Shown one piece after another: positions 1 through 64,000 of a stretch of DNA of 64,000 bases. Under the pieces are notes generated by a model. It saw only the letters and a list, made by a program, of their open reading frames with translations, ran no database searches and was not told the DNA's origin. A program made the position numbers and the translations under genes. The DNA is from Hyphomicrobiaceae bacterium (GTDB lineage: Bacteria; Pseudomonadota; Alphaproteobacteria; Rhizobiales; Hyphomicrobiaceae), in contig JAWKWE010000008.1 of the NCBI GenBank assembly GCA_041397645.1, forward strand, positions 28,394-92,393. Reading direction: 5' to 3'. Position 1 is the first letter of the stretch, and every line of letters begins with the position of its first letter.

Positions 1-51
1 ATGACCATCACGGTTCCGGCAACATTGCTGGAATCCGGGAGCGTGCAATGA
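1..51 (+). CDS. 3' end of an upstream CDS entering the window (partial, product unknown)
   Basis: Frame 1 is open from base 1 to TGA at 49-51 and overlaps the next ATG as ATGA, the coupling pattern used throughout this operon. Too short to identify. Confidence 0.35.
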   Translation: MTITVPATLLESGSVQ

Positions 52-743
52 CGACTTCGCGACGCGCCACCAAGCGAAGTCCGAACCGGCAATTGCTCCG
101 CGAGCGTGAAATCGTGAACGCGGCACGTCTGGTCTTCGAGACGGCCGGGTATGACAACGCATCGATGGCCGAAATAGCTGCGCGCGTGGGAATCGTGGAG
201 GGTACCGTCTATCTGTACTTCGACAGCAAGAAAGACCTGATGCACCGCGTAATCGCGGAATGGTACGAAGGTCTGATTGCGTCGGTGTCCGAAGGTCTGA
301 CGCGGGTCGTTGGCGTTCGCGCGCGCCTTCGATTTTGTATCCTGAGGCACCTACGTGTCTACGTCGAAGATACCGGGCTCGCCAATCTCATGATCAGGGA
401 ATTACGGCGCGACAGGAAGTTCTATGAGACCGAGGTCTATTCCTTGAACAAGCGCTACGCTGCTTTTGTGACGGCGGAAATTCTCGACGGCATCAAGCAG
501 GGTGAATTCAGTCCGGATATTGTTCCGGAAATTGTGCGTGATCTGATATTCGGCGGCATCGAGCATTGCGCCTATCGGATCCTGTCGGGTCGCGGCGGCC
601 TGGATATCGATCTCGTCGCCGATCGCATTCTCGGTACGCTCTGGCCAGGCATCGCGGCGCAGAATGACGCGTCGTCAGCTTCGATCGAGCACCGCATTGC
701 CAGACTCGAGAAATTGGTCGTCGCTAGTGGCGAGGATTCATGA
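48..743 (+). CDS. TetR/AcrR family transcriptional regulator
   Basis: N-terminal HTH REIVNAARLVFETAGYDNASMAEIAARVGIVEGTVYLYFDSKKDL; 231 aa; ATGA overlap with the next gene. Confidence 0.93.
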   Translation: MTTSRRATKRSPNRQLLREREIVNAARLVFETAGYDNASMAEIAARVGIVEGTVYLYFDSKKDLMHRVIAEWYEGLIASVSEGLTRVVGVRARLRFCILRHLRVYVEDTGLANLMIRELRRDRKFYETEVYSLNKRYAAFVTAEILDGIKQGEFSPDIVPEIVRDLIFGGIEHCAYRILSGRGGLDIDLVADRILGTLWPGIAAQNDASSASIEHRIARLEKLVVASGEDS

Positions 744-2200
744 AGCACATCCTTGTCGCAAACCGGGGCGAGATCGCGCTGCGGGTTATTCGCACAGCCC
801 ATCGCTTGGGCATCAAGACCACCCTCGCGGCCCACGCCGTGGATCTCAAATCCATCGCTTCCCAAGCAGCCGGTCAGACGGCGCAGATCTTTGGCGATCC
901 CCCGGTTTCGGCGTATCTTGATATCCCCCAATTGACCAAGGTTGCGTTGGACTGCGGTTGCGACGCGGTTCATCCCGGTTATGGATTTCTCTCGGAAAAT
1001 GCAGAATTTGCCGCGCAAGTAGAGGCTGCGGGTCTTTGCTGGGTCGGACCATCACCCGATCTCATCGATCTGATGGGAGACAAGATACGCGCGCGCGAAT
1101 TCGCGCATCGGTGCGGTCTGCCATTGGTGCCGTTCGCCCTGGACTCCGGTCATAAGGAGTTTCGCGACGCAGTTCTTGCCTTGGGATTTCCCGTGCTTGT
1201 CAAGGCGGCGGCCGGAGGCGGCGGGAAGGGCATCAAGATTGTTCGCCAGGAAATCGATCTGGATCGAGCGATCGCCCAGGCGCGTAGCGAAGCGCTCAGG
1301 TGCTTTGGTGACGAAAGGATTTATGCAGAAAGGTTTGTCGAAAGACCGCGGCACATCGAAGTGCAGATTCTCGCCGATCAATTTGGCAAAGTCATCCATC
1401 TAGGCGAACGTGAATGCTCGATTCAGCGGCGCTTCCAGAAGATTATCGAGGAGACGCCGTCAGTTGCCATCGATACCGATCTGCGCTCAAAGATTTGCGG
1501 GGCGGCAGTCGCGCTGGCCAAGGCATCTCAATATCGAAATGCGGGTACAGTCGAGTTTATTCTCGGTCCGGATCACGAATTCTATTTTCTCGAAGTGAAT
1601 ACCAGATTGCAAGTCGAACATCCCGTAACGGAGCTGGTGACGGGGTTGGATTTAGTCGAATGGCAACTGCGAATCGCGTCCGGGGAAGCATTGCCATTCG
1701 AGCAATCTGATGTCGCCAGCAACGGGCACGCGATCGAATGTCGGATCAACGCTGAAGATGTTCTATCGGGCTTTGTTCCCAGTTCAGGAATACTGGCTCG
1801 CTACATTGAACCGCATGGGGAGGGAATTCGCGTCGATAGCGGAGTATGCGAACTAGATCGGCTAACTAGCTCGTTTGATCCGATGTTGGCGAAGCTGATC
1901 GTTTGGGGTCCCGACCGGGGATCCACCATCGCTCGAACTGAAGACGCGCTCGGCAACTTCTGCCTTCTCGGCCCGGAGACGAACATCGCCTATTTACGCG
2001 CGCTGCTCAAGCAGCCCGATTATGTTGCGGGGCATATCGACACCGGCTTTATCGATCGCCATCACGAAGAAATATTGCGGCGCATGCAGGTCGAGAGTCG
2101 GCTTGACGCGAGAGTGGCCGCCGCATTTATCGCACTGATGATTCCGGAAGCCCGCGTTTCGTATTCGAGCCTTAGCGAACTTGGAGCGTGGAAGAACTAA
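740..2200 (+). CDS. Biotin carboxylase subunit (BC domain only) of acyl-CoA carboxylase module 1
   Basis: ILVANRGEIA, HPGYGFLSEN, GGGGKG, ERECSIQRRFQK, FLEVNTRLQVEHPVTE and RVDSG motifs; ends before any biotinyl domain. Confidence 0.93.
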   Translation: MKHILVANRGEIALRVIRTAHRLGIKTTLAAHAVDLKSIASQAAGQTAQIFGDPPVSAYLDIPQLTKVALDCGCDAVHPGYGFLSENAEFAAQVEAAGLCWVGPSPDLIDLMGDKIRAREFAHRCGLPLVPFALDSGHKEFRDAVLALGFPVLVKAAAGGGGKGIKIVRQEIDLDRAIAQARSEALRCFGDERIYAERFVERPRHIEVQILADQFGKVIHLGERECSIQRRFQKIIEETPSVAIDTDLRSKICGAAVALAKASQYRNAGTVEFILGPDHEFYFLEVNTRLQVEHPVTELVTGLDLVEWQLRIASGEALPFEQSDVASNGHAIECRINAEDVLSGFVPSSGILARYIEPHGEGIRVDSGVCELDRLTSSFDPMLAKLIVWGPDRGSTIARTEDALGNFCLLGPETNIAYLRALLKQPDYVAGHIDTGFIDRHHEEILRRMQVESRLDARVAAAFIALMIPEARVSYSSLSELGAWKN

Positions 2201-2698
2201 ATGACTGCGGTGTTGAGGTCAGGTTCCGAGTTTCTGGCGGTCATGGCGGAAGCGTCCGGGCGAGTCATGGTCGGGCGCAGCGAGGTGCGGATTGAGAATT
2301 TCAGTCGCAACGGCGGAACGCTGGCGGGTACGCTCGGAGGAACGCGATGGAAAATCGAGGTGGCTCGGATTGGCGATCGGATCATTGCCTGGTCGAGCGG
2401 GCGGATCTGGCAGGCTGAGATTCAGCTCCTTCCGGTATCTGAAATCGACGCGGCGGGTGAACACTCGGGCCAGATCACGGCTCCCATGCCCGGCTCCATC
2501 GTCCAAGTTCATGTTTCGCCGTCCCAGCCTGTCGCCGCAGGGGACGTCATGGTCACGATCGAAAGTATGAAAATGGAGACGGCGCTGGTCGCGATACGCG
2601 ACGGGGTGGTCGCGTCCGTCCTCGTCGAAGCCGGAACAACAGTAGACCGCGGAGCCCTATTGGTATCGTTCATGAAGCAGGAGGAAGCGGCTTCATGA
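2201..2698 (+). CDS. Biotin carboxyl carrier subunit (BT-like linker plus biotinyl domain) of carboxylase module 1
   Basis: ITAPMPG and the biotinylation motif ESMKME; starts in the same frame directly after the TAA of the BC gene. Confidence 0.9.
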   Translation: MTAVLRSGSEFLAVMAEASGRVMVGRSEVRIENFSRNGGTLAGTLGGTRWKIEVARIGDRIIAWSSGRIWQAEIQLLPVSEIDAAGEHSGQITAPMPGSIVQVHVSPSQPVAAGDVMVTIESMKMETALVAIRDGVVASVLVEAGTTVDRGALLVSFMKQEEAAS

Positions 2699-4308
2699 TG
2701 CGGCGAATAGTGTCTCGTGTGAATACTCAGAGCACGGAGTTCAAGGCCAATCACGCAAGAATGTCTGGTCTCGTCCAGGCTCTACGCGAACAGCAGCGTG
2801 CCACACGGTTCGATCGTCCGAAACGCGATCTTGAACGCATAGGGCGCCAGAACAAGCTCTTTGTCCGTGAGCGGCTCGAGCTTCTCATCGATGCTGGCAG
2901 CCCATTTCTCGAATTGTCTTCTCTTGCGGCGTGCCGCAGTTATGACGGGGAAGCGCCGGGTGCCGGTCTGCTAACTGGCATCGGGCTTGTCAACGGCCGC
3001 CAGGTGATGGTCCACGCCTCCGACCCGAGCGTCAAGGGAGGTGCCTGGTATCCGCATTCGGTCAAGAAGATCATAAGGGCGCTCGACATCGCCTTGGAAA
3101 ATCATCTGCCCGTCGTACATCTTTGCGACAGCGCAGGCGGATATCTCCCGCTTCAGCATGAATTCTTCGCGGACCGTCAATATGGCGGACGTATTTTTCG
3201 TAACCAGGTCGAGTTGTCAAAGCGCGGCATTCCCCAGGTCGCCGTCGTGTTGGGCCACTGTACTGCGGGGGGTGCTTACGTTCCGGCGTTATCGGATTAC
3301 AACATTATTGTCCGCGGCAATGGGGGCATCTTCCTGGGCGGTCCGCCGCTCGTGAAGGCGGCAACGGGAGAAGTGGTGTCAGCGAACGACTTGGGCGGGT
3401 GCGACGTCCACACACGCATTTCAGGTACAGCTGACTATCCGGCGGCCAATGAGCAAGATGCCATTCATCTTGCCCGCGAGATTGTCGGCGAAGCTTTTCC
3501 TCCGGCCCAGCCATGGCTGGCGGATCGAATAGAGCCGGAACAACCGTTTTATGAGCCGGATGAACTCTACGGAATCATTCCGGCAGACCGTAAACGGTCA
3601 TTTGACGTTCGCGAAGTCATTGCGCGCATCGTCGATGGAAGCAGGTTTCACGAATATCAGCCGGCCCTCGGCACGACCCTGGTCTGTGGTTTCGCGCGAG
3701 TATTCGGATGGAAAATCGGCATCGTTGCGAACAACGGCGTTCTCTTCAGTGACAGTTCGCTCAAGGCGGCCCATTTCATCCAGCTATGCGACCGGGACAA
3801 GGTTCCGCTTCTCTTTCTGCAGAACATTACAGGATTCATGATCGGGCGGGAGTACGAAGCGCGCGGCATCACCAAAGACGGCGCCAAGATGATCACCGCG
3901 CAGGCAAGCGTGAGAGTGCCGAAGTTTACTGTGATGGTGGGGAGCTCGTTTGGTGCTGGTAACTACGGCATGTGCGGCAGGGCGTTCGATCCCAGATTTC
4001 TGTTCTCATGGCCGAACAGCCAGATCGGTGTGATGGGTGGCGACCAAGCTGCGAATACGTTGACAGATATCAAGCGAAGTCAGCTCGCGCGAAACGGGGG
4101 CGTCGCCGATGAAGACGAAATCGCGTCGATGCGTAATGCAATCCTGGAAGACTATGAACGGCATTCGGATGCCTATTGGTCGACGTCGGAGCTATGGGAC
4201 GACGGCTTGCTTGATCCGGCCGACACACGAAACGCATTAGCAGTCGCGATCGCCGCATCTTTGCATCGGCCTCTGGACCCTTTGGGATCTGGGATCCTGC
4301 GACTATGA
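2695..4308 (+). CDS. Carboxyltransferase (MCC-beta-like) subunit, module 1
   Basis: [48 protein letters not shown] and [10 protein letters not shown] motifs. Confidence 0.92.
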
Positions 4309-4333
4309 AGAAGGGTCTGTACGGAGAGAGCAC

Positions 4334-5503
4334 ATGAACTTGCTGAGCTATTCGCAGAGCGACTTGGTGGAGGAACTGCGCTCGACTGCCAGAGGGTTCT
4401 CCGATGGTGAGATCGCACCCCGCGTGGAGGAAATGGATCGCTCCGACAGGTTCCCTCGAGAACTCTGGCCCCAAATGGGAAAACTTGGATTGTTCGGCAT
4501 CACGGCGCCCATGGAATTTGGCGGGCTCGGTCTGGGATATCTCGCGCATGTCGTTGTTACCGAAGAGATCTCGCGCGGGTCGGGTGCGTTGGGCGTGAGC
4601 TATCTTGCTCACTCGAACCTTTGCATCAATCAGATTTCCCTGAATGGGACCACGGCACAGAAGGAGAAATATCTGCCGAAACTTATTTCGGGAGAGTGGG
4701 TAGGAGGGCTGGCGATGTCGGAGCCCGAGGCAGGATCTGACGTTGTCAGCATGCGCCTCGAGGCTACCCGCCGAGGTGACGGCTACGTGCTGAATGGCAC
4801 CAAGATGTGGATCACTAATGGGCCCGTCGCTGACCTCCTGGTGGTCTATGCCAAGACTGACCGGAAGGCGGGGAAGCGCGGTATCACCGCCTTTGTCGTC
4901 GAAAGGTCGGCAAGTGGCTTCAGCGTTGCGCAGACGCTGGATAAGCTTGGCAATCGAGGTTCTCCCACCGGGGAGCTGGTTTTCCAGGACTGCGTCGTTC
5001 CCGCAGAGAATGTGCTGGGAAAGGTCGGTGGTGGTGTCCGGGTCTTGATGAGTGGCCTCGACTACGAGCGGACCGTGGGCGCTGCGATCCCGCTCGGCAT
5101 TATGCAGGCGTCGATGGACGTAACGCTTCCGTATGTCCGTCAACGAAAGCAGTTTGGCGAGCCGATCGGCAGCTTTCAGCTGATGCAAGGAAAATTGGCC
5201 GACATGTACACGCGGTTATCGACGTCGAGGTCCTATCTCTACACGGTTGCGCGGGCACTCGATGACGGGATTCCTGGCAGTACGGCGAACCGCAAGGATG
5301 CCGCAACCGCCTATCTGGTATGTGCCGAGAACGGCATCTGGGTCGCGGATCAGGCGCTGCAAAGCTTCGGCGGCAACGGTTACATCAACAGCTGCCCGGC
5401 AGGACGATTGCTTCGTGATGCGAGATTGCACACGATCGGCGGTGGAACGGCCGAGATTCGTCGCTGGCTCATCGGTCGCGAGCTTTACCAAGAGTCGCAA
5501 TAG
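4334..5503 (+). CDS. Isovaleryl-CoA dehydrogenase-like acyl-CoA dehydrogenase (LiuA/IVD family, diverged)
   Basis: [42 protein letters not shown] and GGNGYIN motifs; the C-terminal loop reads LHTIGGGT rather than the canonical LYEIGAGT. Confidence 0.88.
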
Positions 5504-5530
5504 GACGTACTCCGAGAGAAGGTGGCAGCA

Positions 5531-7276
5531 ATGACCAATCAAGCGGAGCTACTCAGAAAACTGACGGAGGAAGGCGAGAGCGTTGTTGCGCGCTTGAGGA
5601 AGTGGGCCGCCGAAACACCCGACCGCCGATTCTTCTTTTATGGGGAAGACCGCACCGGTCTGAGCTTCCGGCAGTTCGACGAAGTGACGGATTGCGTTGC
5701 TGGAAATTTCGCGGCGAGGGGCATCAGGAAAGGCGATCGTGTTGCGATCTTGGCCCGGAATCAAAAGCTCTCTGTTTTGTCGATGTTTGCGATCTGGAAG
5801 GCAGGCGCGGTATTCTGTCCGATCAATTTCAATTACACGGGCGCGCTCCTTCATTCGCTCATTCTGGACCTTGAGCCATCTCTGCTTATTGCGGATGACG
5901 AAGCAAAGCCTGCGATTGATGAGGTCTTGCGGCTTGGTCGCGGCCTCGCAGATATCAAGCGAATTGTGATCGATTGTCCCGGACAGCTACGGTCCATTCC
6001 CAATCATGCGTCCGCCGAGGTGCCGGTTCTGGAAAGCTGGTCCGCATATCTGGAACCCTCGCAGGCTCCTCCAATCGACCTCGATTTCGATGATATCGCG
6101 AATATCATCTATACGTCAGGAACAACTGGACCTTCAAAGGGCGTGCTTCAGACTCATCGCTGGATCAACCAGATGACGTTCTTCTTGCGGAAGCTGCTCA
6201 CGCCCGATGATGTGATCTACAATGATCTACCACTTTATCACATCGGAGGCGCAATCTGTAATGTTGCACGTGCCGCATGGGTGGGCTGTGAGGTGGCGTG
6301 CTGGGACCGCTTCAGTGTGAGCGACTTCTGGGATCGCATCGAAACAAGTTCTGCAAGCTGTGCGATCTTGCTCGATGTCATGATTCCCAGATTGATGAAA
6401 GCGCCAGCAAGCATTCGGGATCGCAACAACACCTTGAACAAGGTAAATCTTCAGCCGCTGCCGCTCAATCACAATGAAATCGCCCGGCGGTTTGGATTTG
6501 ATGTCGTCGCCACCGGGTTTGGCCAAACCGAAAGCGGAAATTCATTGGTCGCTTATATCCTTGAGACCGATGAGGAGACTGGAACACCGTCATCGATCCG
6601 GCGAGGCATGGGCCGAGAGGGGATCCGGCGCGTTATGGAGGCGTATGATGCAACCGTGGTTTCGGCATCCGAAGCCTCTTGGAAGGGTTTCATGGGACGC
6701 GAAACCATGTTCGTGGACGCGACGATTCTCGATGAACATGATCGAGAATGCAAACCGGGCGTGGCCGGCCAATTGGCGATCCGGCCCAAAGTACCGGGTT
6801 TACTGTTTTCCGGCTATCACAGGCGTCCCGAGGACTCCCTCAAATCGATGCGGAATTTCTGGTTCCATACCGGCGATGTGGCACGCAAGGAGCCTAGCGG
6901 CATCTTCACCTACATCGACCGGATGGCGGATCGAATCCGGGTGCGCGGCGAGAATATCTCCTCTTTCCAGATAGAGGATATCTTCAACCAGAATCCGTCG
7001 ATCAGCATTTGCGCTGCATTTCCCGTTCCTGCGCTAGAAGGCGATGAGGACGACGTGGTTGTTTTCGTTGTCCCCTCAAAGGACGTTCCCGACCTGGAGA
7101 AAGGTCTACGAGAATGGATCAAGACGGCGATGCCGAAATTCATGCAACCGAAATATATCCGTATTGTTGATGACATTCCGCGCACGCCGACGAACAAGAT
7201 CGAAAAATTCAAACTCAAGAGGATGTTCCTCGAACAACGCGCCAATGGATTGTCGTCAGCAGGGAGCAAGGGATGA
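5531..7276 (+). CDS. ATP-dependent acyl-CoA ligase (CaiC-like AMP-binding enzyme)
   Basis: YTSGTTGPSKG P-loop, FGQTE, FHTGD, RIRVRGENISS and PRTPTNKIEK. ATG 5531 preferred over GTG 5522. Confidence 0.9.
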   Translation: MTNQAELLRKLTEEGESVVARLRKWAAETPDRRFFFYGEDRTGLSFRQFDEVTDCVAGNFAARGIRKGDRVAILARNQKLSVLSMFAIWKAGAVFCPINFNYTGALLHSLILDLEPSLLIADDEAKPAIDEVLRLGRGLADIKRIVIDCPGQLRSIPNHASAEVPVLESWSAYLEPSQAPPIDLDFDDIANIIYTSGTTGPSKGVLQTHRWINQMTFFLRKLLTPDDVIYNDLPLYHIGGAICNVARAAWVGCEVACWDRFSVSDFWDRIETSSASCAILLDVMIPRLMKAPASIRDRNNTLNKVNLQPLPLNHNEIARRFGFDVVATGFGQTESGNSLVAYILETDEETGTPSSIRRGMGREGIRRVMEAYDATVVSASEASWKGFMGRETMFVDATILDEHDRECKPGVAGQLAIRPKVPGLLFSGYHRRPEDSLKSMRNFWFHTGDVARKEPSGIFTYIDRMADRIRVRGENISSFQIEDIFNQNPSISICAAFPVPALEGDEDDVVVFVVPSKDVPDLEKGLREWIKTAMPKFMQPKYIRIVDDIPRTPTNKIEKFKLKRMFLEQRANGLSSAGSKG

Positions 7277-8442: not shown

Positions 8443-8467
8443 CCAGACGAAGATTCGGAGAAGCAAA

Positions 8468-9349: not shown

Positions 9350-9415
9350 CCATGCCACAGGGTGGCGTCGCGGCGCGTGACCATTGAAGGGGGAATGCCT
9401 GCATAAGGAGTGACT

Positions 9416-53986: not shown

Positions 53987-53989
53987 CGT

Positions 53990-55063: not shown

Positions 55064-55071
55064 GACCCGCC

Positions 55072-55890
55072 ATGAATCCGCAAGAGATCCACAAAGATAG
55101 CCCGATACTGTCGATGAACAGTGTGGAGGTGCTTTACGATTCGGTCATGCTTGCCATCAAGGGAGTATCGATCGAGGTGCCGCACGGAGGGGTGGTTGCG
55201 CTTCTTGGATCCAACGGAGCCGGGAAGAGTACGACATTGAAAGCAATAAGTGGCCTTCTGGCCGCGGAACGCGGGAAGGTGAGCCGAGGTGAGATCCGCT
55301 TTGACGGCAAAGCAATTGGCGACCGTCCGCCTCAGGAGCGGGTCGATCTCGGGATTTGCCATGTGATCGAGGGACGTAGGGTTTTCGAACATCTGACGCC
55401 GGATGAGAACCTCGAAGCGGCGGCTCCAACGTCGATGTCGAGGGCGCGGGTCGCTTCGGATAAAGCGCGCATTTACGACTACTTTCCACGCCTGGCCGAG
55501 CGAAAGTCTGCGCTTGCCGGATATCTTTCGGGCGGTGAACAGCAAATGCTCGCAATCGGGCGGGCCTTGATGACGCAACCGCGTTTACTGATGCTGGACG
55601 AGCCTAGCTTGGGCCTAGCTCCGTTTCTGGTGGCCGAGATTTTCGAAATCATCAAACGCATTAATCGCGATCACGGCCTGTCCGTCCTGCTTGTCGAACA
55701 AAACGCGCTTGCGGCTCTCGATATCGTCTCGCATGGCTATCTGATCGAGAATGGGCGCGTTGTCATGCATGACACGGCGGAAAGGCTGAAGGCAAACTCC
55801 GATATTCAGGAGTTCTACCTGGGCGGTAGCGAAGCCAAGAGTTTTCACGACATCAAGCATTATCGCAGGCGCAAGCGCTGGCTCAGCTGA
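55072..55890 (+). CDS. ABC transporter ATP-binding protein (LivF-like)
   Basis: GSNGAGKST, LSGGEQQMLAIGRAL, LDEPSLGLAP and VEQN. Confidence 0.93.
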   Translation: MNPQEIHKDSPILSMNSVEVLYDSVMLAIKGVSIEVPHGGVVALLGSNGAGKSTTLKAISGLLAAERGKVSRGEIRFDGKAIGDRPPQERVDLGICHVIEGRRVFEHLTPDENLEAAAPTSMSRARVASDKARIYDYFPRLAERKSALAGYLSGGEQQMLAIGRALMTQPRLLMLDEPSLGLAPFLVAEIFEIIKRINRDHGLSVLLVEQNALAALDIVSHGYLIENGRVVMHDTAERLKANSDIQEFYLGGSEAKSFHDIKHYRRRKRWLS

Positions 55891-55935
55891 TCAGGAACGT
55901 CCAGACCGGCATTTGTGAAGGGAGGAGAGCTCATC

Positions 55936-57180
55936 ATGGGATTTTCGAGGTTGCTTGCAAGTGCGGCAATCGCCTGCGTCGTGGTGCTTTCGATAGCGCC
56001 TCAGGCCAGTGCCGTACAACCGCTCAAGCTTGGCGTTTGCTACGATTTGAGCAAGGCCTACACTTTCGCCACGCCCCAGGTATCGCAGGCGGCACAGGAT
56101 CTGGTCGCGCTAACCAATCTCAAGGGTGGGATCGCCGGTGCTCCGATCGAAGTCATCGTGCGAGACCATGGCAATGAGCCGCAACGCGGCATCGAGTGCT
56201 ACGAAAAGCTCAAACGAGAAGGTGTCTTCATCTTCGACACACTGTCGACCCCCGTTTCGCTCGCCGTGTTGCCGCGAGTTATGCAGGACAAGAACATCCT
56301 CATCCAGGCATTGGTCGGCCGCGGAGATGCCGTGGACGGCGCCGTGTTTGAGTGGGTTTTCCCGCTGGGGCCCACTTACTGGGGGCAGGTCGCCAACGAT
56401 GTTGCCTACTTGAAACAGGTGCATGGCGGCGATCTGCGCGGGGTGAAAGTCGGATTCGTCTATCTCGACTATCCGTTCGGTCAGGAGCCGATTCCAATTC
56501 TCGAGACACTGGCCAAGGTGGAAGGCTTCGAGTTGAAGCTCTACCCGGTGCCGCTCCCTGGCAACGATCAGGCCGGCATCTGGACTCAAGTTCGCCGAGA
56601 CCAGCCCGACCACATCATCAGCTGGCTGTTGGGAGGGGCGCATGTCGTGGCATCGAAGGAGATGAAGCGCAACGGCATCCCAATGGACAAGTATATCTCG
56701 GTCAATTGGCTGAACGAAGTGGATATTGCCAATATCGGCCCCGAGGCAGCCAAGGGGTTGAAGCGGGGCACCAACGTTGCAGGTGGGCAGGATGTTCCGC
56801 TGATCCAGGAGATCATCGCTGAGCTTTACAAGAAGGGCAAAGGCAGCGGGCCGGAGAAAAACCTCAAGGATGTCTACTACAACACTGGACTGGCCATGTA
56901 CTCCATGATCCTCGAAGGCGCTCGCCAAGCTGCCAAGTTGCAGGGCGATCCGATCACTGCCGCGGCAATGCGTGAAGGGCTCCAACACATCACAAACTAT
57001 GATGCCAACGGGCTGATGGCACCGGTAACGGTGACATCGAACGATCATGGTGGCGGCGGCAAGACCCGCATCGAGATGTGGGATGGTCAGAGATGGGTGC
57101 CGCAGACAGAATGGAGGGCGGCCTATACGGATCTGATCTGGGAAGTGGTGAGGAAGAGTTCCTCCAAATATCGAAACTAG
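55936..57180 (+). CDS. ABC substrate-binding protein (type I periplasmic, fatty/dicarboxylic-acid-like clade), copy 1
   Basis: Sec-type signal peptide; DHGNEPQRGIECYEKLK, YLDYPFG and DHGGGG. Confidence 0.88.
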   Translation: MGFSRLLASAAIACVVVLSIAPQASAVQPLKLGVCYDLSKAYTFATPQVSQAAQDLVALTNLKGGIAGAPIEVIVRDHGNEPQRGIECYEKLKREGVFIFDTLSTPVSLAVLPRVMQDKNILIQALVGRGDAVDGAVFEWVFPLGPTYWGQVANDVAYLKQVHGGDLRGVKVGFVYLDYPFGQEPIPILETLAKVEGFELKLYPVPLPGNDQAGIWTQVRRDQPDHIISWLLGGAHVVASKEMKRNGIPMDKYISVNWLNEVDIANIGPEAAKGLKRGTNVAGGQDVPLIQEIIAELYKKGKGSGPEKNLKDVYYNTGLAMYSMILEGARQAAKLQGDPITAAAMREGLQHITNYDANGLMAPVTVTSNDHGGGGKTRIEMWDGQRWVPQTEWRAAYTDLIWEVVRKSSSKYRN

Positions 57181-57190
57181 CCTTTGAGGG

Positions 57191-57235
57191 CTCCGCTCGG
57201 CGCAGCGCCGGTGCAAGGCTTTGCGGATAGCGGAG
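57191..57235 (+). other. Candidate intercistronic stem-loop after SBP1
   Basis: CTCCGCT...AGCGGAG outer stem with an inner CGGCG-CAG-CGCCG hairpin; no U-tract. Confidence 0.35.
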
Positions 57236-57271
57236 ATGTAGGATTGGAAATTTGGGACTAACAGACGGGAG

Positions 57272-58525
57272 ATGAGAATGTCGGTCGAAAAAGCAATAAA
57301 ATGGCTCGTGGTCGCCGCTGCCATCAGCGTCGCAGGATGCGCGCAGGCTTTAGCTCAGGAGACCTTGAAATTCGGTGCGTGCTTTGATCTCAGTAAATCC
57401 TATACCTTCATCTCACCGCAGGTGGCGCAAGCCGCGCAGGATCTTGCCGCGCTTACGAACATGAAGGGCGGCATCGATGGGCACAAGATCGAGATCGTGG
57501 TTCAGGACCACGGCAATGAGCCCCAGCGCGGCATTGAATGCTACGAAAAGCTTAAGCGTGAAGGCGTCTTCGTCTTTAACATGCTGTCGACCCCCGTGTC
57601 GATCGCGGTGCTGCCGCGGATCATGAAGGAGAAGAATGTCCTTATCCAGTCGTTGGTCGGGCGCGGTGACGCCATCGACGGTTCGATCTTCACTCAGATC
57701 TTTCCAGTGGGTGCAACTTATTGGGGGCAGGCTGCCAACGATATCGCCTATATCAAACAACTGCGCGGCGGCGACATGAAAGGGGCCAAGATCGGATTTA
57801 TCTATCTCGACTATCCTTTTGGTCAGGAGCCGATCGGTATCCTCAAGACTCTCGCCGAACGCGAGGGCTTTGAACTAAAGCTTTATCCTGTACCTTTGCC
57901 CGGCAGCGATCAGACCAGCGTTTGGACACAGGTGCGACGCGACCAGCCTGATTTCATGATCAGCTGGCTGCTGGCCGGAGGACATGTCGTGGCAGCCAAA
58001 GAAATGAAGCGCAACGGCTATCCGATCGAAAAGTACATTTCGGTCAACTGGCTTAACGAGGTGGATATTGCCAATATTGGTCCCGAGGCTGCCAAGGGGA
58101 TCAAGCGTGGAACAAACGTCGTCGGTGGTCAGGATGTTCCGATCATCAGGGAGATGACGGCAGAGCTTTATGCCAAAGGCAAAGGCAGCGGGCCCGAGAA
58201 AAACCTGAAGGACGTGTATTACAATACCGGTTTAGCTATCTATTCGGTCGCTTTCGAGGCTACCCGCAACGCCATCAAACAGGCGGGTTGGCCGGTGACC
58301 GCAGCCTCGATGAAGGGCGGATATGAGAGCATAAAGGACTTCGACGCCAATGGCCTGCTTGCCCCCGTGACTGTAACGGCGGCAGACCATGGCGGCGGGG
58401 GCAAGACGCGGATCGAAATGTGGGACGGCCAGAAGTGGGTGCCGCAGACTGCTTGGTTATCAGCCTATCAGGACCTGATCTGGCAGATCGTGAAGACGAG
58501 TTCATCTGGATTCAAGGTCGAGTAA
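57272..58525 (+). CDS. ABC substrate-binding protein, copy 2 (tandem paralog)
   Basis: Same motifs as copy 1 with long identical stretches and a different signal peptide. Confidence 0.88.
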   Translation: MRMSVEKAIKWLVVAAAISVAGCAQALAQETLKFGACFDLSKSYTFISPQVAQAAQDLAALTNMKGGIDGHKIEIVVQDHGNEPQRGIECYEKLKREGVFVFNMLSTPVSIAVLPRIMKEKNVLIQSLVGRGDAIDGSIFTQIFPVGATYWGQAANDIAYIKQLRGGDMKGAKIGFIYLDYPFGQEPIGILKTLAEREGFELKLYPVPLPGSDQTSVWTQVRRDQPDFMISWLLAGGHVVAAKEMKRNGYPIEKYISVNWLNEVDIANIGPEAAKGIKRGTNVVGGQDVPIIREMTAELYAKGKGSGPEKNLKDVYYNTGLAIYSVAFEATRNAIKQAGWPVTAASMKGGYESIKDFDANGLLAPVTVTAADHGGGGKTRIEMWDGQKWVPQTAWLSAYQDLIWQIVKTSSSGFKVE

Positions 58526-58572
58526 TTCAGGCACCCAACGAGTTAATAGCATACGCGTCGGCGGGTGCAATC

Positions 58573-58609
58573 CGGCTCGGCGGCGGGCAATGCATCCGTC
58601 GCCGAGCCG
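58573..58609 (+). other. GC-rich stem-loop after SBP2 (mRNA stabiliser or attenuating terminator)
   Basis: 14-bp stem CGGCTCGGCGGCGG / CCGTCGCCGAGCCG with one G-U pair and a 9-nt loop; no U-tract. Confidence 0.55.
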
Positions 58610-58640
58610 CCAATCTTCAGCGCGAAAGCCAGTGAACTCC

Positions 58641-59423
58641 ATGGTTGATAGTCCAATCCAAGTCAGCGTCGATGAGGGTATTGCTACCGTTTTTATCAAT
58701 CGTCCTGAGCGCAAGAACGCTCTATCTGTGGCGGCCGCCAATGGACTGGCCGACGCGTGGGATCAGATCGAAGCGGATGCCAAGATCCGAGTGGTAATTC
58801 TAACCTCTGCCGATTGTGGCGTCTTCAGCGCAGGGCTTGACCTCAAGGAGGCGGCCGAGATCGCTCGCAATGAGCACGTCGATATCCTCTCCAAAATGCG
58901 CGATCCTTTCCACGAGCGCATGCGCGCCTGCTCGAAGCCGATCGTTGCCGCGATGACCGGCTCGCTCATGGCGGGAGGGATGATGCTGTCGCTCATGTGC
59001 GATCTGCGCGTGGGTCTCAAGAGAACCAAAGTCGGGATCACGGAGGTCAAGATCGGTCGCGGCTCGCCGTGGGCCGCTCCGGCCCTCTATATGCTCCCTC
59101 AGGCGATCCTTATGGAGATCGTTCTGACCGGCGATCTCATGCCAATTGAACGGCTGCACGATTACGGCTTCACCAATTATCTTGAAGATACACCCGACGC
59201 AGTGCGGTCTCGTGCGATGGATCTGGCACGACGGATTGCCGCCGGCGCGCCGTTGTCCGTAATTGCGGCCAAGGCCAGTGTTCGCGCGACAATGGATCTC
59301 GGATGCCGCGCCGGGCTGGTAGAAGGCGCTCGCCTTCACGAGGTCGTTTATGCCAGCCGAGACGCAATTGAAGGCCCCAGAGCTTTCGCCGAAAAGCGCA
59401 AGCCGGTCTGGCAGGGCAGGTAG
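58641..59423 (+). CDS. Enoyl-CoA hydratase/isomerase family protein (single catalytic Glu)
   Basis: NRPERKNAL, FSAGLDL, AGGMML (no first Glu), GITEVKIG and EGPRAFAEKRKPVW. Confidence 0.87.
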   Translation: MVDSPIQVSVDEGIATVFINRPERKNALSVAAANGLADAWDQIEADAKIRVVILTSADCGVFSAGLDLKEAAEIARNEHVDILSKMRDPFHERMRACSKPIVAAMTGSLMAGGMMLSLMCDLRVGLKRTKVGITEVKIGRGSPWAAPALYMLPQAILMEIVLTGDLMPIERLHDYGFTNYLEDTPDAVRSRAMDLARRIAAGAPLSVIAAKASVRATMDLGCRAGLVEGARLHEVVYASRDAIEGPRAFAEKRKPVWQGR

Positions 59424-59527
59424 GGCCGCCACGATCGAACGGCGCTGTCGGGAGTTCAGAACGCACGGTTTCAGCAACTCCGCGATGCGTGTTACTTTAT
59501 TTGTCAAGAATTAGGGGAGCGATCGCA

Positions 59528-60763
59528 GTGGGCAGTGTTGCGTTTGAGCTTCCCGAAGACGTCATTGAAGTGCGCGACGGCGTTCTGCGCTTCGTCGAGT
59601 CGCAGGTCGTTCCGCTGATTGACCGGAATCGCGCGCTTCTCGAAGATCAGCGGCGCCTGTATGACGAATACGGTCGATACTCGGCCGAAGTACGCAAGTT
59701 GATCCAAGAAGTCAGGATGCTTTCGGCCGAAGCCGGCTTCTATGCGATGTGCGCACCCGCGGAAATCGGAGGAGGGGGGCTGGGGCATCTGGCCTACTAC
59801 GTGGCCTGGGAGGCGATATATCGCCGACTCGGAGGACAGGGCGTCATCATTCCCTGGGTCATTGCTCATTGGGCCTTCGGTCCCAGCCGGTTACTCACCC
59901 AGGTCACGGAGGAGGCCCGCGAGAGATGTCTGGCGGGCATGATGGCTGGGAAGACATCGATGTGCTTTGGTCTTTCCGAGCCAGGGGCTGGCTCAGACGC
60001 CAGCATGATCAAGACGCGGGCTGGCAAGACCGGACCAGGCTGGAAAATCTCTGGCCGCAAGCTTTGGACAACAAACGCTCCCACCGCGGAATGGTGTGTC
60101 GTTTTCGCCATCACCGATGTCGAGAAAGCCGCGCGAAAGGCTGGAGGCATCAGCGCATTTCTCGTTCCAACCGATGCACGAGGATTCCATGTTGAGAGTG
60201 TAGTGCGCTTGTTTGGTCACGCCGGGGGTCACGAGGGCGCTCTCGTGCTTGAGGATGTCGATGTGCAGCCCTGGCAATTGGTCGGCGAGCTCGACGAGGG
60301 ATTTAAGATCGCACTTTATGGAGTCTCGCTGGGTCGGGTCTACAACGCTGCCCGTGCTGTCGGACAGGGAAGATGGGCGCTGGAAATGGCCATCGACTAT
60401 TCGAAGCAACGTGAGGCCTTCGGTGCCAAGATCGCGGAGTATCAAGCCGTCTCGTTCCCGATAGCCGAGGCAGCCACGGAATTGCATGCCGCGCACCTGA
60501 TGGGATTGAATGCAGCGATGCTCCTCGACCGCGGCGATAAGGCGCCGAAGGAGCTTTCAATGGCAAAGGCCTATTCGGTACAAGCCGGATTTCGCGCCGT
60601 GGATCGCGCAATTCAGACACACGGCGGCATGGGATTGACGAACGAAATCGGTCTTGTTCACGCTTGGCAAGACCTTCGGATCGTCAACATTGCCGACGGT
60701 ACGAATGAAATTCTGACGCGGATGATTGCCCAGCGGTTGTTGGCAGGCGACGTCGATCTCTAG
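59528..60763 (+). CDS. Acyl-CoA dehydrogenase
   Basis: AGGGGAG RBS then GTG; FGLSEPGAGSDA, GRKLWTTN, REAFGAKI and NIADGTNEI. Confidence 0.9.
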   Translation: MGSVAFELPEDVIEVRDGVLRFVESQVVPLIDRNRALLEDQRRLYDEYGRYSAEVRKLIQEVRMLSAEAGFYAMCAPAEIGGGGLGHLAYYVAWEAIYRRLGGQGVIIPWVIAHWAFGPSRLLTQVTEEARERCLAGMMAGKTSMCFGLSEPGAGSDASMIKTRAGKTGPGWKISGRKLWTTNAPTAEWCVVFAITDVEKAARKAGGISAFLVPTDARGFHVESVVRLFGHAGGHEGALVLEDVDVQPWQLVGELDEGFKIALYGVSLGRVYNAARAVGQGRWALEMAIDYSKQREAFGAKIAEYQAVSFPIAEAATELHAAHLMGLNAAMLLDRGDKAPKELSMAKAYSVQAGFRAVDRAIQTHGGMGLTNEIGLVHAWQDLRIVNIADGTNEILTRMIAQRLLAGDVDL

Positions 60764-60816: not shown

Positions 60817-61689
60817 TCAGGTGAACCGCAGTTGCACCTCCATGGCGATGGTCCCGCCCGGCGTCATTGCCCACAGCTCGGCGCCCGCGCCGCCGTCGAC
60901 GGGGCGTCCGGCGACGTCGAACGGCGTGGTATCGAACAAAGGTGCACGCGCGCGTTGCGTGAATGAGGCGATCGTCCTGCTCGCATTGTTGTCCCGGACG
61001 AGATCGATGAGGCATTGCTGCGAATAAGGGCCGTGCACCACCAGCCCGGGGTAACCCTCCACGGTTGTCGCGTAAGTCCGATCGTAGTGAATACGATGCG
61101 GGTTGAAGGTCACAGCAGAATAGCGGAACAGCGATACCGGTTCCGTTGTGATCTGCCGCGTCCACGGTAGGTCGGCGGGCGGCGTATCTCGCTTCGGTAT
61201 CCCGCTTTTCTCCCCCGGCTTCACGGCGTCGCGAAACACGGTGTAACTCTCCTCCACGATCGCGAGGCCGCGTGGCGAGAATATGCGCCGCGTTTGCGTG
61301 GCAAAGATGAGAGGGCCCGTACTGCCGGAACGCAACGTCATGTCTGTCAGTTCCGTCTCGCGCTTGAGCGCGTCCCCCACCAGCAGCGGATGATGAAACG
61401 TCAGGCTCGTGCCCGCGTACATGCGCCGCGGGAACGGCACATCGGGAATGACGCCCCCCGACGTTGGCAGGCCATCCTCGCCCAGCGTCGCCCTGCGCGC
61501 GAAGGAATGGAAATAGGCGAGGTGCCATCCCGGCGGAATCGCTTCGCCCCTGGTGGGTACCTGATCGTCTCGGTCGAATGCAGCCACGAGCCCGAAGAGC
61601 GGCGCTCGCGTGGCTTCGTCTTCTTCCACGATCTTCGCGCCTATGTGCTTGCGCAAACTGTCAATGTCGATTTCGGCAGCCATCGTCAT
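60817..61689 (-). CDS. Double-hotdog (R)-hydratase, mesaconyl-C4/itaconyl-CoA-hydratase-like
   Basis: PPGWHLAYF, GEDG, PRRMYAG, LFRYSAVTFNPHRIHYD, GYPGLVVHGP and RARAPLF. Confidence 0.85.
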   Translation of the reverse strand: MTMAAEIDIDSLRKHIGAKIVEEDEATRAPLFGLVAAFDRDDQVPTRGEAIPPGWHLAYFHSFARRATLGEDGLPTSGGVIPDVPFPRRMYAGTSLTFHHPLLVGDALKRETELTDMTLRSGSTGPLIFATQTRRIFSPRGLAIVEESYTVFRDAVKPGEKSGIPKRDTPPADLPWTRQITTEPVSLFRYSAVTFNPHRIHYDRTYATTVEGYPGLVVHGPYSQQCLIDLVRDNNASRTIASFTQRARAPLFDTTPFDVAGRPVDGGAGAELWAMTPGGTIAMEVQLRFT

Positions 61690-61713
61690 TCTCCCAGGCT
61701 GGGTGCAGGCATG

Positions 61714-62139
61714 TCAGCTCGCGGGCGCTGCAAGAACGAATCCGGGCAGTGTGAGGCCGGGTTTCGCTTTCTCGAAAACGAGGCGGACGGGCATGCCGAT
61801 CTCGAGCCGCGTGTCCGCCGGCGCATGCAGTCGCCCCAGCATGCGCACGCCTTCCTCCAGATCGACCGTCACCAGCGTGCAGGGCAGGTCGGACCTGTAA
61901 GCGTCGTGAAACGGATGATGCGTAATCGTCCAGCTGTGAATCGTACCTTGCTCTAATGCCTCGACCCACCGGGTTTCGAAGGAATGGCATGCATCGCATA
62001 CCGGCCGGGGATAATGCCGGACCTTTCCGCAGCCCGCGCATTGCTGAAGCAGCAACTTGCCTTCGTTGAGGCCCTCCCAATAGGGCATAGTGTCTGGTGT
62101 CGGTTCGGGCACGAGCCTCGAATATGTGTCGCCAATCAT
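61714..62139 (-). CDS. DUF35 Zn-ribbon/OB-fold protein
   Basis: PYWEGL, QQCAGC..HYPRPVCDAC, VDLEEGVRM and IGMPVRLVF. Confidence 0.9.
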   Translation of the reverse strand: MIGDTYSRLVPEPTPDTMPYWEGLNEGKLLLQQCAGCGKVRHYPRPVCDACHSFETRWVEALEQGTIHSWTITHHPFHDAYRSDLPCTLVTVDLEEGVRMLGRLHAPADTRLEIGMPVRLVFEKAKPGLTLPGFVLAAPAS

Positions 62140-62143
62140 ACTC

Positions 62144-63295
62144 TCAACCTCTCCTCATGATCGCGACCGACCCGTCGCCCATGTCGCCGTAACCGGAGAC
62201 GAGACCCAGTTCAGCGCCGTTTACTTGGGCTTTTCCGGCACTCCCCCTGAGCTGCTTTACGAGCTCGACCACATGATTCATCCCAACCATGTGCGCTTGG
62301 GACAGCAGACCGCCATGCGTGTTGACCGGGAGCCTGCCGCCAAGCCTTATGGCGCCGCTCTCGACAAACGGCCCGCCCTCGCCCTTCCTGCAGAAGCCGA
62401 TATCTTCCAGCTGGCAGAGCACGACATACGTGAAACAATCGTAGATCTCGGCCACTTGAATTTCCCGAGGCGTAACGCCCGCCATCGCAAACGCCTTGGG
62501 TGCGGCTTTGGCGATGCCCAAACGCGTCATGTCGGGACGCTGGGTGATCGAACTCGGAGAGTCGGGATGTCCTTCGGCGACGCCCATGATGAGGATCGGC
62601 TTCTGGCGCAAATCTCTGCTGCGCTCGGCAGCGCTGACGACGATTGCAGCACCGCCATCGCTCTCGAGACTGCAGTCCAGCAACCGCAGCGGATCGGAGA
62701 TCATGCGCGAATTCTGATGATCTTCGATCGTGACAGGCTTCGTCATCATCGCATTGCCGTTCAGGGCCGCGTTGTGGCGTGTCGACACGGCGATCTCGCC
62801 GAGTTGGCGGCTTGTCGTGCCGTAGAGCTCCATATGCCGCCGTGCCATCGGGGCGTAGAGCTGCGCCGGCGCGATTGCCCCGATTGGCATCTCGAATTCG
62901 CCGACAACCTTGAACTGCGGCATCTGCTGTACGCGTGTGCCGATACGGCCTGCAGACGAGCCGTTCCGTCCGATCGGCAGCAGGACATGATTGCAAAGAC
63001 CCGCACCGATCGCCAGGAGTGCGGCTTGAATTCCGGCCACGCAACTCGCGCCTCCGAGAGGCGTTGTGGCTGAAAAACGAAGATCCTCGATACCGAAGTT
63101 AGTCACGAAATCCTCGGCGACGACAGCTGAATTCGAATAGGGAATGATCCCGTCGATGTCTCTTGGCGACAATCCGGCGTCCTCGATGGCCTTCAGCGAG
63201 GCTTCGAGCTGGAGAGCGAGCACGCTTTTTCCGGAGTTGCGGCTGTAGGCCGTCTCGCCGACGCCGGTTATGGCGACCCGTTCCTTCAATACCAT
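62144..63295 (-). CDS. SCP2/Ltp2-type thiolase-fold protein
   Basis: AITGVGET, GGASC, PLRLLDCSLESDGG, IYDCFT and NTHGGLLSQAH; GAGGAG RBS before ATG 63295. Confidence 0.88.
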   Translation of the reverse strand: MVLKERVAITGVGETAYSRNSGKSVLALQLEASLKAIEDAGLSPRDIDGIIPYSNSAVVAEDFVTNFGIEDLRFSATTPLGGASCVAGIQAALLAIGAGLCNHVLLPIGRNGSSAGRIGTRVQQMPQFKVVGEFEMPIGAIAPAQLYAPMARRHMELYGTTSRQLGEIAVSTRHNAALNGNAMMTKPVTIEDHQNSRMISDPLRLLDCSLESDGGAAIVVSAAERSRDLRQKPILIMGVAEGHPDSPSSITQRPDMTRLGIAKAAPKAFAMAGVTPREIQVAEIYDCFTYVVLCQLEDIGFCRKGEGGPFVESGAIRLGGRLPVNTHGGLLSQAHMVGMNHVVELVKQLRGSAGKAQVNGAELGLVSGYGDMGDGSVAIMRRG

Positions 63296-63331
63296 CTGTA
63301 GTCTCCTCGAATGCACTGCGGGGCAGTTGTC

Positions 63332-63670
63332 CTAGCGACAGGCGAAGCTCGGTGCGATTCTATTCGCAAAAAGCTCCAGCGAGCCGAAATCCTGGCCGCG
63401 CTCGTGAATGCTTCGCGGAATGAGCCGGAAACACTCGTTCACCCGGAATACGCTTATAGCGGCGAACTCATTGGCGACCTCAAAGCCTGTCGATCTGCAG
63501 GTGGTGCTCGAGTATCCGAAACCGGTATAACCGGCTTGTTCAGCGACTTGGACGTACCCCGCGATCTCTTGCAACATGCGCTGATAGGGTTCGGGCCGCT
63601 TGCCGGCCATGCCAGCTTTGAGCTCCTGCGGCCGACCAATCGTGCAGTACATGCATAGATTGAAATCCAC
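63332..63670 (-). pseudogene. Internally deleted luciferase-like (LLM-class) flavin monooxygenase
   Basis: AAGGAG RBS and GTG; LLM N-terminus (MYCTIGR..AGMAG..YQRML..AEQAGY), hidden out-of-frame EHHLQID at 63509-63489, joined to a C-terminal SLELFANRIAPSF; only 112 codons. Confidence 0.7.
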
Positions 63671-63714
63671 GGAGCGAACTCCTTGACGCCGGTCGTGGGA
63701 AGTAACAATATGAA

Positions 63715-63730
63715 CCGAACAAACGTTAGA
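63715..63730. promoter_or_regulatory. Operator copy 7, CCGAAC-AAAC-GTTAGA
   Basis: Overlaps the -10 of minus-strand TTGACT (63751-63746)-N17-TAACGT (63728-63723), in the gap before a divergent ACAD. Confidence 0.78.
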
Positions 63731-63901
63731 ATTGTTGCGCCATGAAGTCAAATATCAGGCTATCGGCGGCCCGCACAGTCGTGAGTTGAGGCGTGGTCAG
63801 GATCGCCAGTTCTTGCGCGATGTAGATAAACGAGGAGCTAGGTTTGATGCAGCGGATCCCGCTGGCTTGGCACAAAGTAGCGCGCATGGAGGAGAACGCT
63901 C

Positions 63902-64000
63902 ATGGATTTGAGCTATGGTCCCAAATATCGAGCGCTGCAGCAGGAGGTTCGCGGCTTCGTGAAAAGCTACGGCCATTTGTCGCCGCGAACGGGCGGCGGC
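63902..64000 (+). CDS. Probable acyl-CoA dehydrogenase, N-terminus only (runs off the window)
   Basis: GGAGGAG RBS; MDLSYGPKYRALQQEVRGFV resembles the MDLxxxxExxAFRxEVRxF ACAD start. Confidence 0.6.
   Translation, partial: MDLSYGPKYRALQQEVRGFVKSYGHLSPRTGGG

Follow-up and report, generated by a model that had tools for sequence, protein, structure and literature searches.

In the Atu and Liu pathways of Pseudomonas (AtuRABCDEFGH and LiuRABCDE), the β-methyl group of the substrate is removed by carboxylation, hydration and a lyase reaction. Other described systems deal with rings or side chains: the Bad/Ali/Pim proteins of Rhodopseudomonas palustris take cyclohexanecarboxylate to pimeloyl-coenzyme A (CoA), the ChsH1-ChsH2/Ltp2 and Shy/Sal systems act on steroid side chains, and 2-oxo-Δ3-4,5,5-trimethylcyclopentenylacetyl-CoA monooxygenase (OTEMO), from the camphor pathway of P. 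putida, has as its substrate the CoA ester of an alicyclic terpenoid keto-acid. The 64-kb stretch analysed here (the window; Hyphomicrobiaceae bacterium, contig JAWKWE010000008.1, positions 28,394 to 92,393) carries relatives of these systems under a shared operator. We mapped its genes from open reading frames (ORFs) and codon-position GC content and compared some 55 of the products with NCBIfam and Pfam models; at the family level, its 45-50 genes appear catabolic for acids whose branching or rings block β-oxidation. With modest confidence we read the window as one instance of a regulon that Alphaproteobacteria have conserved for acids with β-methyl branches, unsaturation and/or alicyclic rings, the most plausible being of terpenoid type.

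The regulon is defined by a palindrome, TCTAAC-N4-GTTAGA, which emerged from a k-mer screen of the window. At up to two mismatches it has seven sites, against 0.75 expected, a count attained in none of 100 shuffles; once three mismatches are allowed, noise drowns the signal. All seven sites are intergenic and lie in promoter regions, several of them directly 3′ of TTGACA-like boxes:

12137-12152: operator TCTAACGTATGTTAGA, immediately 3′ of a TTGACA box
19085-19100: operator between the genes for a double TetR protein and a BadH-like enzyme, abutted by a σ70-like promoter (19058-19085); the same site occurs in the related loci L081, L085 (Sediminimonas) and Roseovarius indicus
26491-26506: operator in the divergent region between FadH-type and AliB-like genes, overlapped by a minus-strand promoter
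39520-39535: operator in the divergent region between a short-chain dehydrogenase/reductase (SDR) gene and a carboxyltransferase (CT) gene
48275-48290: operator with a plus-strand promoter nearby and no convincing gene until 49474
49419-49434: operator 5′ of an SDR and transporter unit, with the same position occupied in locus L008
63715-63730: operator with a plus-strand TTGACG promoter, preceding a partial acyl-CoA dehydrogenase (ACAD) gene at 63902

Segments 48241-48312 and 63681-63752 contain a similar plus-strand promoter/operator pair, the second of which drives the partial ACAD gene; the ~1.1 kb that follow the first (48291-49418) hold no convincing ORF or family match. Scans for σ70 promoters were overall not above chance, and two of their matches touch operators (19085 and 26491). 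The overlap of operators with promoters fits the geometry of a repressor.

For comparison we assembled related loci by a genome scan with the lyase of the window and tblastn searches with all window proteins, and fetched 80 of them for operator counts. Sixty-four of the 80 fetched loci contain an exact copy, in almost all cases at one shared place (~1,772) between the FadH-type and AliB-like genes, and at up to one mismatch there are 129 sites in 70 loci, over 1.5 Mb, compared to a single site in shuffled sequence. The consensus across loci is TCTAAC-AT(T/C)T-GTTAGA, of which we found no published description. Sediminimonas and R. indicus have further operators before their FadH/AliB, AtuA-carboxylase, Ltp-like/TetR/CT and double-TetR units. 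The proposal in a preliminary description of this DNA that most transcription units share one operator is thus borne out, with seven sites in at least seven unit regions and conservation at orthologous positions in other genera. That β-oxidation paralogues merely clustered here by chance, without forming a functional unit, could be argued from the gene order, which differs between genomes, and from an insertion sequence (IS) that interrupts one unit; with an operator conserved across families (129 sites against one in shuffles) and the same modules repeatedly found together on single contigs and plasmids, we regard this as highly improbable.

The likely regulator is encoded next to the operator at 19085. 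The protein at 17673-19040 (455-466 residues; its start codon was set by a 455-residue protein of 100% identity) has two complete TetR units in one polypeptide, which sets it apart from PsrA, the FadR proteins of Bacillus and Thermus, KstR and AtuR. With these TetR-controlled acyl-CoA regulons the window shares a palindromic operator over many catabolic promoters and a probable autoregulation, as operator copies are found in the promoter region of the double TetR itself. Orthologues with 53-85% identity follow the distribution of the enzymes across taxa and share contigs with them, and proteins of this type (~430-460 residues) are common in Rhodobacteraceae, Sneathiella and Phyllobacteriaceae. 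In Sediminimonas and on the R. indicus plasmid pRIdsm_01, the double TetR gene lies between the BadH-like/Acs-ligase unit and a unit of thioesterase, enoyl-CoA hydratase (ECH), SDR and ACAD genes.

The gene set itself is widely conserved. A block comprising the FadH-type gene and the divergent AliB-like, ECH, ACAD, PaaK-type ligase, CT, biotin carboxylase (BC) and lyase genes is intact in six Bradyrhizobium assemblies (79-96% protein and ~85% DNA identity) and recurs in about 70 genomes of Rhodobacteraceae, Ahrensia, Phyllobacteriaceae and Nisaea (67-91% identity). Five of the Bradyrhizobium loci (L001-L005) also keep the next 10 kb, with ligase, thioesterase, SDR and CT-ECH-BC-ACAD genes, and in several roseobacters the block is adjoined by the genes equivalent to 12158-17676 (Module B below) and by the transporter module. 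Behind the lyase gene, loci L020, L081 and L168 carry genes for an SDR, a citrate-synthase-like short 'citryl-CoA lyase', an ACAD and a MaoC hydratase; neither the window nor Bradyrhizobium L001-L006 has these genes there. The PaaK-type ligase of the block is present on 38 plasmids, 12 of them typed as conjugative, in Pseudosulfitobacter, Sulfitobacter, Roseibium, Sagittula, Phaeobacter, Roseovarius, Paracoccus, Marinovum and Nitratireductor. Plasmid pRIdsm_01 has all three carboxylase types of the window within ~57 kb, together with the double TetR, both thioesterases, an Ltp-like gene and BioY. We found no published description of the cluster.

This synteny, which the preliminary description had proposed to look for, shows the 'island' of that description to be a single arrangement of genes that many genomes share. 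The label itself finds no support: Rfam and tRNA scans of the window were empty, it shows no island borders, tRNA genes or integrase, and the regulon is also kept by Bradyrhizobium, by many Rhodobacteraceae and by further Alphaproteobacteria. The same distribution bears on the nature of the substrates. DNA resembling the window is found in wastewater, bioreactor-sludge and drinking-water metagenomes, one wastewater run having contigs identical to positions 24001-44000, and fragments of 95-99% identity, spread over all units, occur in metatranscriptomes of a synthetic community, where the thin coverage shows presence and low-level transcription, not regulation. The wastewater and sludge occurrences could suggest a gene set dedicated to anthropogenic naphthenic acids, all the more since Pseudomonas growing on such acids induces Atu and 3-methylcrotonyl-CoA carboxylase (MCC)-type proteins (PMC8289671; bioRxiv 10.1101/2025.09.24.678253). 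Yet roseobacters of the open ocean and those associated with algae commonly have the regulon, as does Bradyrhizobium from soil, which points to natural substrates, and we found no sequencing run or paper tying the set to oil-sands material; we therefore consider a naphthenic-acid island very unlikely. Of the two substrate types named in the preliminary description, the isoprenoid type agrees with the natural distribution of the set, while nothing ties the set to naphthenic acids.

The window has three biotin-dependent carboxylases, encoded with their partners in the following units (BCCP, biotin carboxyl carrier protein; DECR, 2,4-dienoyl-CoA reductase; HMGL, 3-hydroxy-3-methylglutaryl-CoA lyase):

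1-51, plus strand, frame 1: 3′ end of an upstream ORF (…TITVPATLLESGSVQ, then stop), its stop codon overlapping the next start codon (ATGA)
48-743, plus strand: TetR-family regulator with a single unit, heading the first carboxylase unit; weak matches, below cutoff, to Bacillus-type FadR, KstR and PsrA models
740-4308, plus strand: carboxylase 1, with split subunits (BC 740-2200, BCCP 2201-2698, CT 2695-4308), of the AtuA-associated clade
4334-11041, plus strand: rest of the first unit (ACAD 4334-5503, AMP-ligase 5522-7276, ACAD 7273-8442, DECR-like SDR 8468-9349, AMP-ligase 9410-11041)
26553-37438, plus strand: Module A (AliB-like ACAD 26553-27734, ECH 27731-28510, ACAD 28527-29687, PaaK-type ligase 29717-31108, then CT 31105-32712 and BC-BCCP 32713-34740 of the second carboxylase, HMGL-like lyase 34737-35696, AMP-ligase 35885-37438)
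39599-45184, plus strand: carboxylase 3 unit (CT 39599-41197, LiuC/AtuE-like ECH ~41209-42006, BC-BCCP 41991-44018, ACAD 44015-45184)

On the R. indicus plasmid (L169, 154.6-155.2 kb), the operon of carboxylase 3 ends with a gene for the biotin transporter BioY, which fits a high biotin demand.

All three CTs belong to the lineage of MCC and geranyl-CoA carboxylase (GCC), judging by search scores, and not to that of propionyl-CoA (PCC) or acetyl-CoA (ACC) carboxylases, because they score highest against MCCβ-type chains (593-622 bits; P. aeruginosa, human and Mycobacterium tuberculosis AccD1), lower against P. aeruginosa GCCβ (5ikl, 435-472 bits) and lowest against PCCβ (~250-280 bits). Enzymes of the MCC/GCC lineage carboxylate the γ-carbon of 3-methyl-2-enoyl-CoAs, and their selectivity follows a simple rule: MCC has a phenylalanine (Phe191) and a three-residue insertion, GCC a glycine and a three-residue deletion (PMC4673880). 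The position of Phe191 of P. aeruginosa MCCβ was inferred, and we used the conserved phenylalanine of GRIF(F/Y)NQ and the lack of the three-residue deletion as its proxy. The window CTs (g04 GRIFRNQ, g27 GSIFHNQ, g33 GNAFYRQ) keep the phenylalanine and have no deletion relative to P. aeruginosa MCCβ, so that none carries the GCCβ signature; the following residue is clade-specific (Arg, His or Tyr).

Judged by these features and by the presence of an HMGL-family lyase and a LiuC-like hydratase, the window might simply hold redundant genes for leucine/isovalerate (Liu) degradation and general β-oxidation, with the three carboxylases as ordinary MCC isoenzymes. The CTs, however, are 50-56% identical to canonical MCCβ, whereas canonical members share 65-73% among themselves across phyla, and the window CTs are only 43-47% identical to one another. 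In the identity matrix and neighbour-joining tree, from which GCCβ was left out (the distance to GCC rests on phmmer scores), they form three separate clades outside canonical MCC, each with its own orthologues. Their partner ACADs do not resemble isovaleryl-CoA dehydrogenase (IVD) either: IVD is absent among the matches of g25 at E ≤ 1e-40, the best being a Thermus ACAD with 169 bits, and for g36 it reaches 251 bits, below the unrelated ACADs 2pg0 (295 bits) and LCAD (270 bits). By these comparisons, the carboxylase-adjacent ACADs are not canonical IVDs. The HMGL-like lyase passes PRK05692 narrowly (257 bits, cutoff 246) and reaches only 164-179 bits against solved, true HMG-CoA lyases; it keeps the HLHDTRG (HxH) and GLGGCP (Cys) motifs, and GPRDG reads GPREG, with glutamate for the metal-binding aspartate. 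Canonical CT-ECH-BC-HMGL clusters, moreover, occur separately in metagenomes. An origin of these enzymes within leucine clades, against which the preliminary description had staked its proposal, is not what we find, and we consider the Liu explanation unlikely.

The window nevertheless shares much with the Atu/Liu systems: a TetR regulator, an MCC/GCC-lineage carboxylase, ACAD, an AtuE/LiuC-like crotonase, SDRs, a ligase, an HMGL-family lyase and a probable association with AtuA. As to the last of these, tblastn finds no AtuA inside the window. The ORF that ends at position 51 encodes a peptide resembling AtuA C-termini (PIKVPAAWLEKGG…, IEIPVPADLAA…), agreeing with PIKVPAAWLEKGGPL at 8 of 15 positions, and the overlap of its stop codon with the start at 48 implies that the first unit begins outside the window. 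An AtuA-family gene lies directly 5′ of the split-type carboxylase in Sediminimonas and R. indicus, and likewise in six loci from metagenomes (L087-L091, L131); a metagenome scan with the first CT yielded no relative above 70% identity. Because the short tail resembles AtuA and relatives carry AtuA upstream of the same carboxylase type, an AtuA gene (PF07287 family) probably lies just outside the window, which would make the first unit atu-like and the reported absence of AtuA probably an effect of the window edge. The differences from Atu/Liu are equally clear: the window has three deeply paralogous carboxylases, none canonical MCC and none with the GCC-type glycine and deletion, one of them with split BC and BCCP; it lacks a canonical IVD; its lyase is ~35% identical to LiuE-type enzymes; its candidate regulator is a fused double TetR; and it adds an aldolase, a Baeyer-Villiger monooxygenase (BVMO) and alicyclic modules.

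The alicyclic genes lie in Modules A and B and around the double TetR:

12158-17676, plus strand: Module B (transglutaminase-like 12158-12907, MaoC 12904-13353, PimD-like ACAD 13350-14459, PimC-like ACAD 14456-15610, ECH (PRK07327) 15646-16455, PaaK-type ligase 16459-17676), kept together in roseobacter loci
17673-19040, minus strand: single-chain double TetR, with two TetR_N plus TetR_C units
19143-19913, plus strand: BadH-like SDR (TIGR03206, 353 bits, cutoff 431)
24427-26460, minus strand: FadH-type (OYE plus FAD/NAD) 2,4-dienoyl-CoA reductase-like enzyme

Together with crotonases, these AliB-like, BadH-like and PimC/PimD-like proteins recall the Bad/Ali/Pim system of R. palustris, and the window could be read as a cyclohexanecarboxylate/pimelate pathway of that type, acting on alicyclic rings without any branched-chain logic. 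The scores all remain below equivalog cutoffs (AliB-like ACAD at 26553-27734 against TIGR03207, 528 bits, cutoff 575; AliA model TIGR03208, 228 bits, cutoff 792), none of AliB, BadH, AliA or BadI being present at that level, and the operon that starts with the AliB-like gene closes with carboxylase and lyase genes, not with a ring hydrolase. Such a pathway would also leave the three γ-carboxylases, the lyase, the aldolase, the BVMO and the AtuA association unexplained, and it seems rather improbable to us. The preliminary description had held that the set matches neither canonical atu nor bad/ali; the second half of that statement stands, with scores below cutoffs and no BadI seen, while the first, as far as it relied on a missing AtuA, is doubtful.

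Two further units, both on the minus strand, may provide the regulon with a different chemistry:

45350-48058, minus strand: type I BVMO (46412-48058, motif FAGEAYHTGLWP), followed by a divergent NUDIX-family protein (45350-46186)
60817-63316, minus strand: candidate aldolase unit (thiolase-like protein with YDCF motif 62144-63316, DUF35 protein 61714-62139, double-hotdog MaoC hydratase 60817-61689)

The thiolase-like protein scores ~262-265 bits against 4u4e and TcLtp2 (6ok1), and its IYDCF aligns with YDHF of TcLtp2, where SCP2-thiolases have HDCF. In the aldolase CtSal, tyrosine and cysteine of YDCY form the catalytic dyad, and YDHF has the same role in Ltp2 (PMC12329534). Because a DUF35 protein and a MaoC hydratase are present in the operon and a dehydrogenase is absent, the trio fits hydration followed by retro-aldol cleavage, though the cysteine (GGASCVAG) and histidine (QAHMVG) retained at thiolase-like positions leave thiolase activity possible.

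Steroid side-chain systems have the same make-up: a protein of thiolase fold carrying Y-D-C/H-F/Y, a zinc-ribbon/OB partner of the DUF35 family and a MaoC hydratase next to them, with no dehydrogenase. Catabolism of steroid, bile-acid or hopanoid side chains and ring fragments might thus be considered, the more so as the window has heteromeric ACAD-like pairs and EchA19-like crotonases and JGI names homologues of the double TetR 'cholesterol catabolism regulator'. The name, however, is an automatic label, the motif is YDCF (Sal/TbSLP-like) with a histidine at the position of Tyr344 of Ltp2, the DUF35 protein is a separate small protein, and there is no steroid-ring gene context: genes of the KshA, KstD, HsaA-D or IpdAB type were found neither in the 64 kb nor in the 57-kb region of R. 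indicus. Biotin carboxylases and AtuA, further, are used by no steroid pathway to our knowledge. We judge a steroid function to be quite unlikely.

The BVMO matches the type I fingerprint FxGxxxHxxxW(P/D) and has the Rossmann motifs GAGLSG and GSGASG. Its best match in the structural database is OTEMO, itself a type I BVMO, with 512 bits; PAMO (456), STMO (442) and CHMO (388-418) follow closely, there are no other camphor genes, and similarity at this level does not fix the substrate. The protein at 45350-46186 has no Pfam match of its own, many of its homologues carrying PF00293 (NUDIX); GCA_027430935.1 likewise has BVMO and NUDIX genes together, separated there by an NMO-like gene. Both of the bypasses that the preliminary description had seen combined here, carboxylation with lyase cleavage and hydration with retro-aldol cleavage followed by a BVMO, are encoded under the shared operator, with a BVMO closest to OTEMO and a YDCF motif beside DUF35 and MaoC proteins.

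The remaining genes concern activation, import and thioester hydrolysis, and one mobile element:

19969-22274, minus strand: IS21-family element (istA, istB), intact, with 27-bp terminal inverted repeats, a CCGAC target duplication and 66% GC
22303-24240, plus strand: Acs-type CoA ligase, 645 residues
37557-39407, minus strand: SDR (38556-39407), 4HBT/PaaI thioesterase (37958-38440) and a second 4HBT paralogue (~37557-37931)
49474-60763, plus strand: Module C (DECR-like SDR, LivG, FadD-type ligase, LivH, LivM, LivF, two Peripla_BP_6 proteins, ECH 58590-59423, ACAD 59489-60763)
50344-58525: LivG/H/M/F importer, its two binding proteins and the ligase encoded within the unit
63902-64000, plus strand: N-terminus of a ninth ACAD (MDLSYGPKYRALQQEVRGFV…), the first 33 codons, continuing past the end of the window

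Every enzyme class listed in the preliminary description was recovered by the family scans, at the family level. The seven CoA ligases comprise four FadD-type, two PaaK-type (16459-17676, 29717-31108) and one Acs-type (22303-24240) enzymes, the further ones being located at 5522-7276, 9410-11041, 35885-37438 and ~51191-53098. The count of nine ACADs likewise holds, with eight complete genes (starts at 4334, 7273, 13350, 14456, 26553, 28527, 44015 and 59489) and the N-terminus at 63902. ORFs 11473-12027, 48475-48825 and 63332-63751 had no NCBIfam or Pfam match and were treated as doubtful, and the ~1.1 kb of 11042-12136 are without a credible gene. The second 4HBT/PaaI-type thioesterase paralogue lies 3′ of the first, and the same tandem pair is found in L085, L168 and R. 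indicus. The IS21 element lies ~30 nt 5′ of the Acs-type ligase gene, which it parts from the BadH-like gene; it is absent from L081, L085 and L168, the uninterrupted L081 defining the insertion, and it separates the ligase from the operator-controlled promoter common to both genes. GC content is 55-60% over most of the window and 60-66% at ~20-26 kb, with a peak of 66% in the 20,001-22,000 bin, which is mostly IS21.

Taken as a regulon for branched, unsaturated and/or alicyclic acids, the gene set suggests the following scheme. The double TetR would repress all units until released by an acid or acyl-CoA effector. Acids would be taken up by the ABC importer with its own ligase, the six other ligases activating substrates and cleavage products, and ACADs would form 2-enoyl-CoAs. 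With a methyl group at C3, an MCC/GCC-lineage carboxylase would act first, followed by hydration by a crotonase and cleavage by the HMGL-like lyase, in the logic of Atu and Liu. Substrates closed to carboxylation might instead be hydrated by MaoC and cleaved by the Sal/Ltp2-like aldolase with its DUF35 partner, in a retro-aldol reaction that yields a carbonyl compound, and the OTEMO-like BVMO could then oxygenate a keto-acyl-CoA. Ring carbons and conjugated double bonds would be handled by the AliB-like, BadH-like and FadH-type enzymes and the three DECR-like SDRs.

Several observations weigh against this reading of the window or narrow it. Nearly all NCBIfam scores are below the curated equivalog cutoffs, so the names given here are family-level names. 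We infer the substrates from gene content, and binding of the palindrome by the double TetR, its candidate regulator, solely from position and co-occurrence. No operator is visible for the gene at 35885 or for the first unit (48-11041), the promoter of which falls beyond the window edge. The MCC-type phenylalanine and the lack of the GCC deletion predict small pockets in all three CTs; long geranyl-type or other acyclic isoprenoid chains are therefore unlikely and compact substrates are implied. The BVMO is adjoined by a NUDIX protein and by no esterase or lactonase, no BadI-type ring hydrolase appears among the crotonase matches listed for the window, and this strain may have lost the function of its Acs-type ligase through the insertion of IS21. 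Natural substrates of terpenoid or alicyclic type are nonetheless suggested by the enzyme families, the link to AtuA, the similarity to OTEMO, the many dienoyl-CoA reductase-like proteins and the alga- and plant-associated hosts.

A more specific conjecture, which we put forward tentatively and hold to be improbable though worth stating, is that the operon 26553-35696 opens or shortens compact cyclic terpenoid acids by carboxylating a ring-attached β-methyl group, hydrating the product and cleaving the Cα-Cβ bond, and that the whole regulon is a widespread, plasmid-spread route for cyclic isoprenoid acids derived from algae and plants. If so, the operon would be a biotin-dependent replacement for ring hydrolysis by BadH/BadI, which fails at a tertiary β-carbon, and the regulon would also hold the so far unassigned genes for hydratase-lyase reactions such as that of (1-hydroxycyclohexan-1-yl)acetyl-CoA lyase. 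Candidate substrates would then be acids of the apocarotenoid, monoterpenoid or abscisate type, the idea of abscisic acid itself being pure speculation.

Whatever its substrates, this regulon of 45-50 genes is shared by Bradyrhizobium and by marine roseobacters that are ecologically dominant and often carry it on conjugative plasmids. It holds three unexplored branches of the MCC/GCC lineage, a divergent clade of HMGL-like lyases, a Sal-type aldolase outside a steroid context and a fused double TetR. Discovery of the substrates would fill a gap in the recycling of branched or cyclic, terpenoid-like acids by marine and soil Alphaproteobacteria, and the regulon could become a source of enzymes, and of a sensor, for branched and alicyclic acids that resist degradation.

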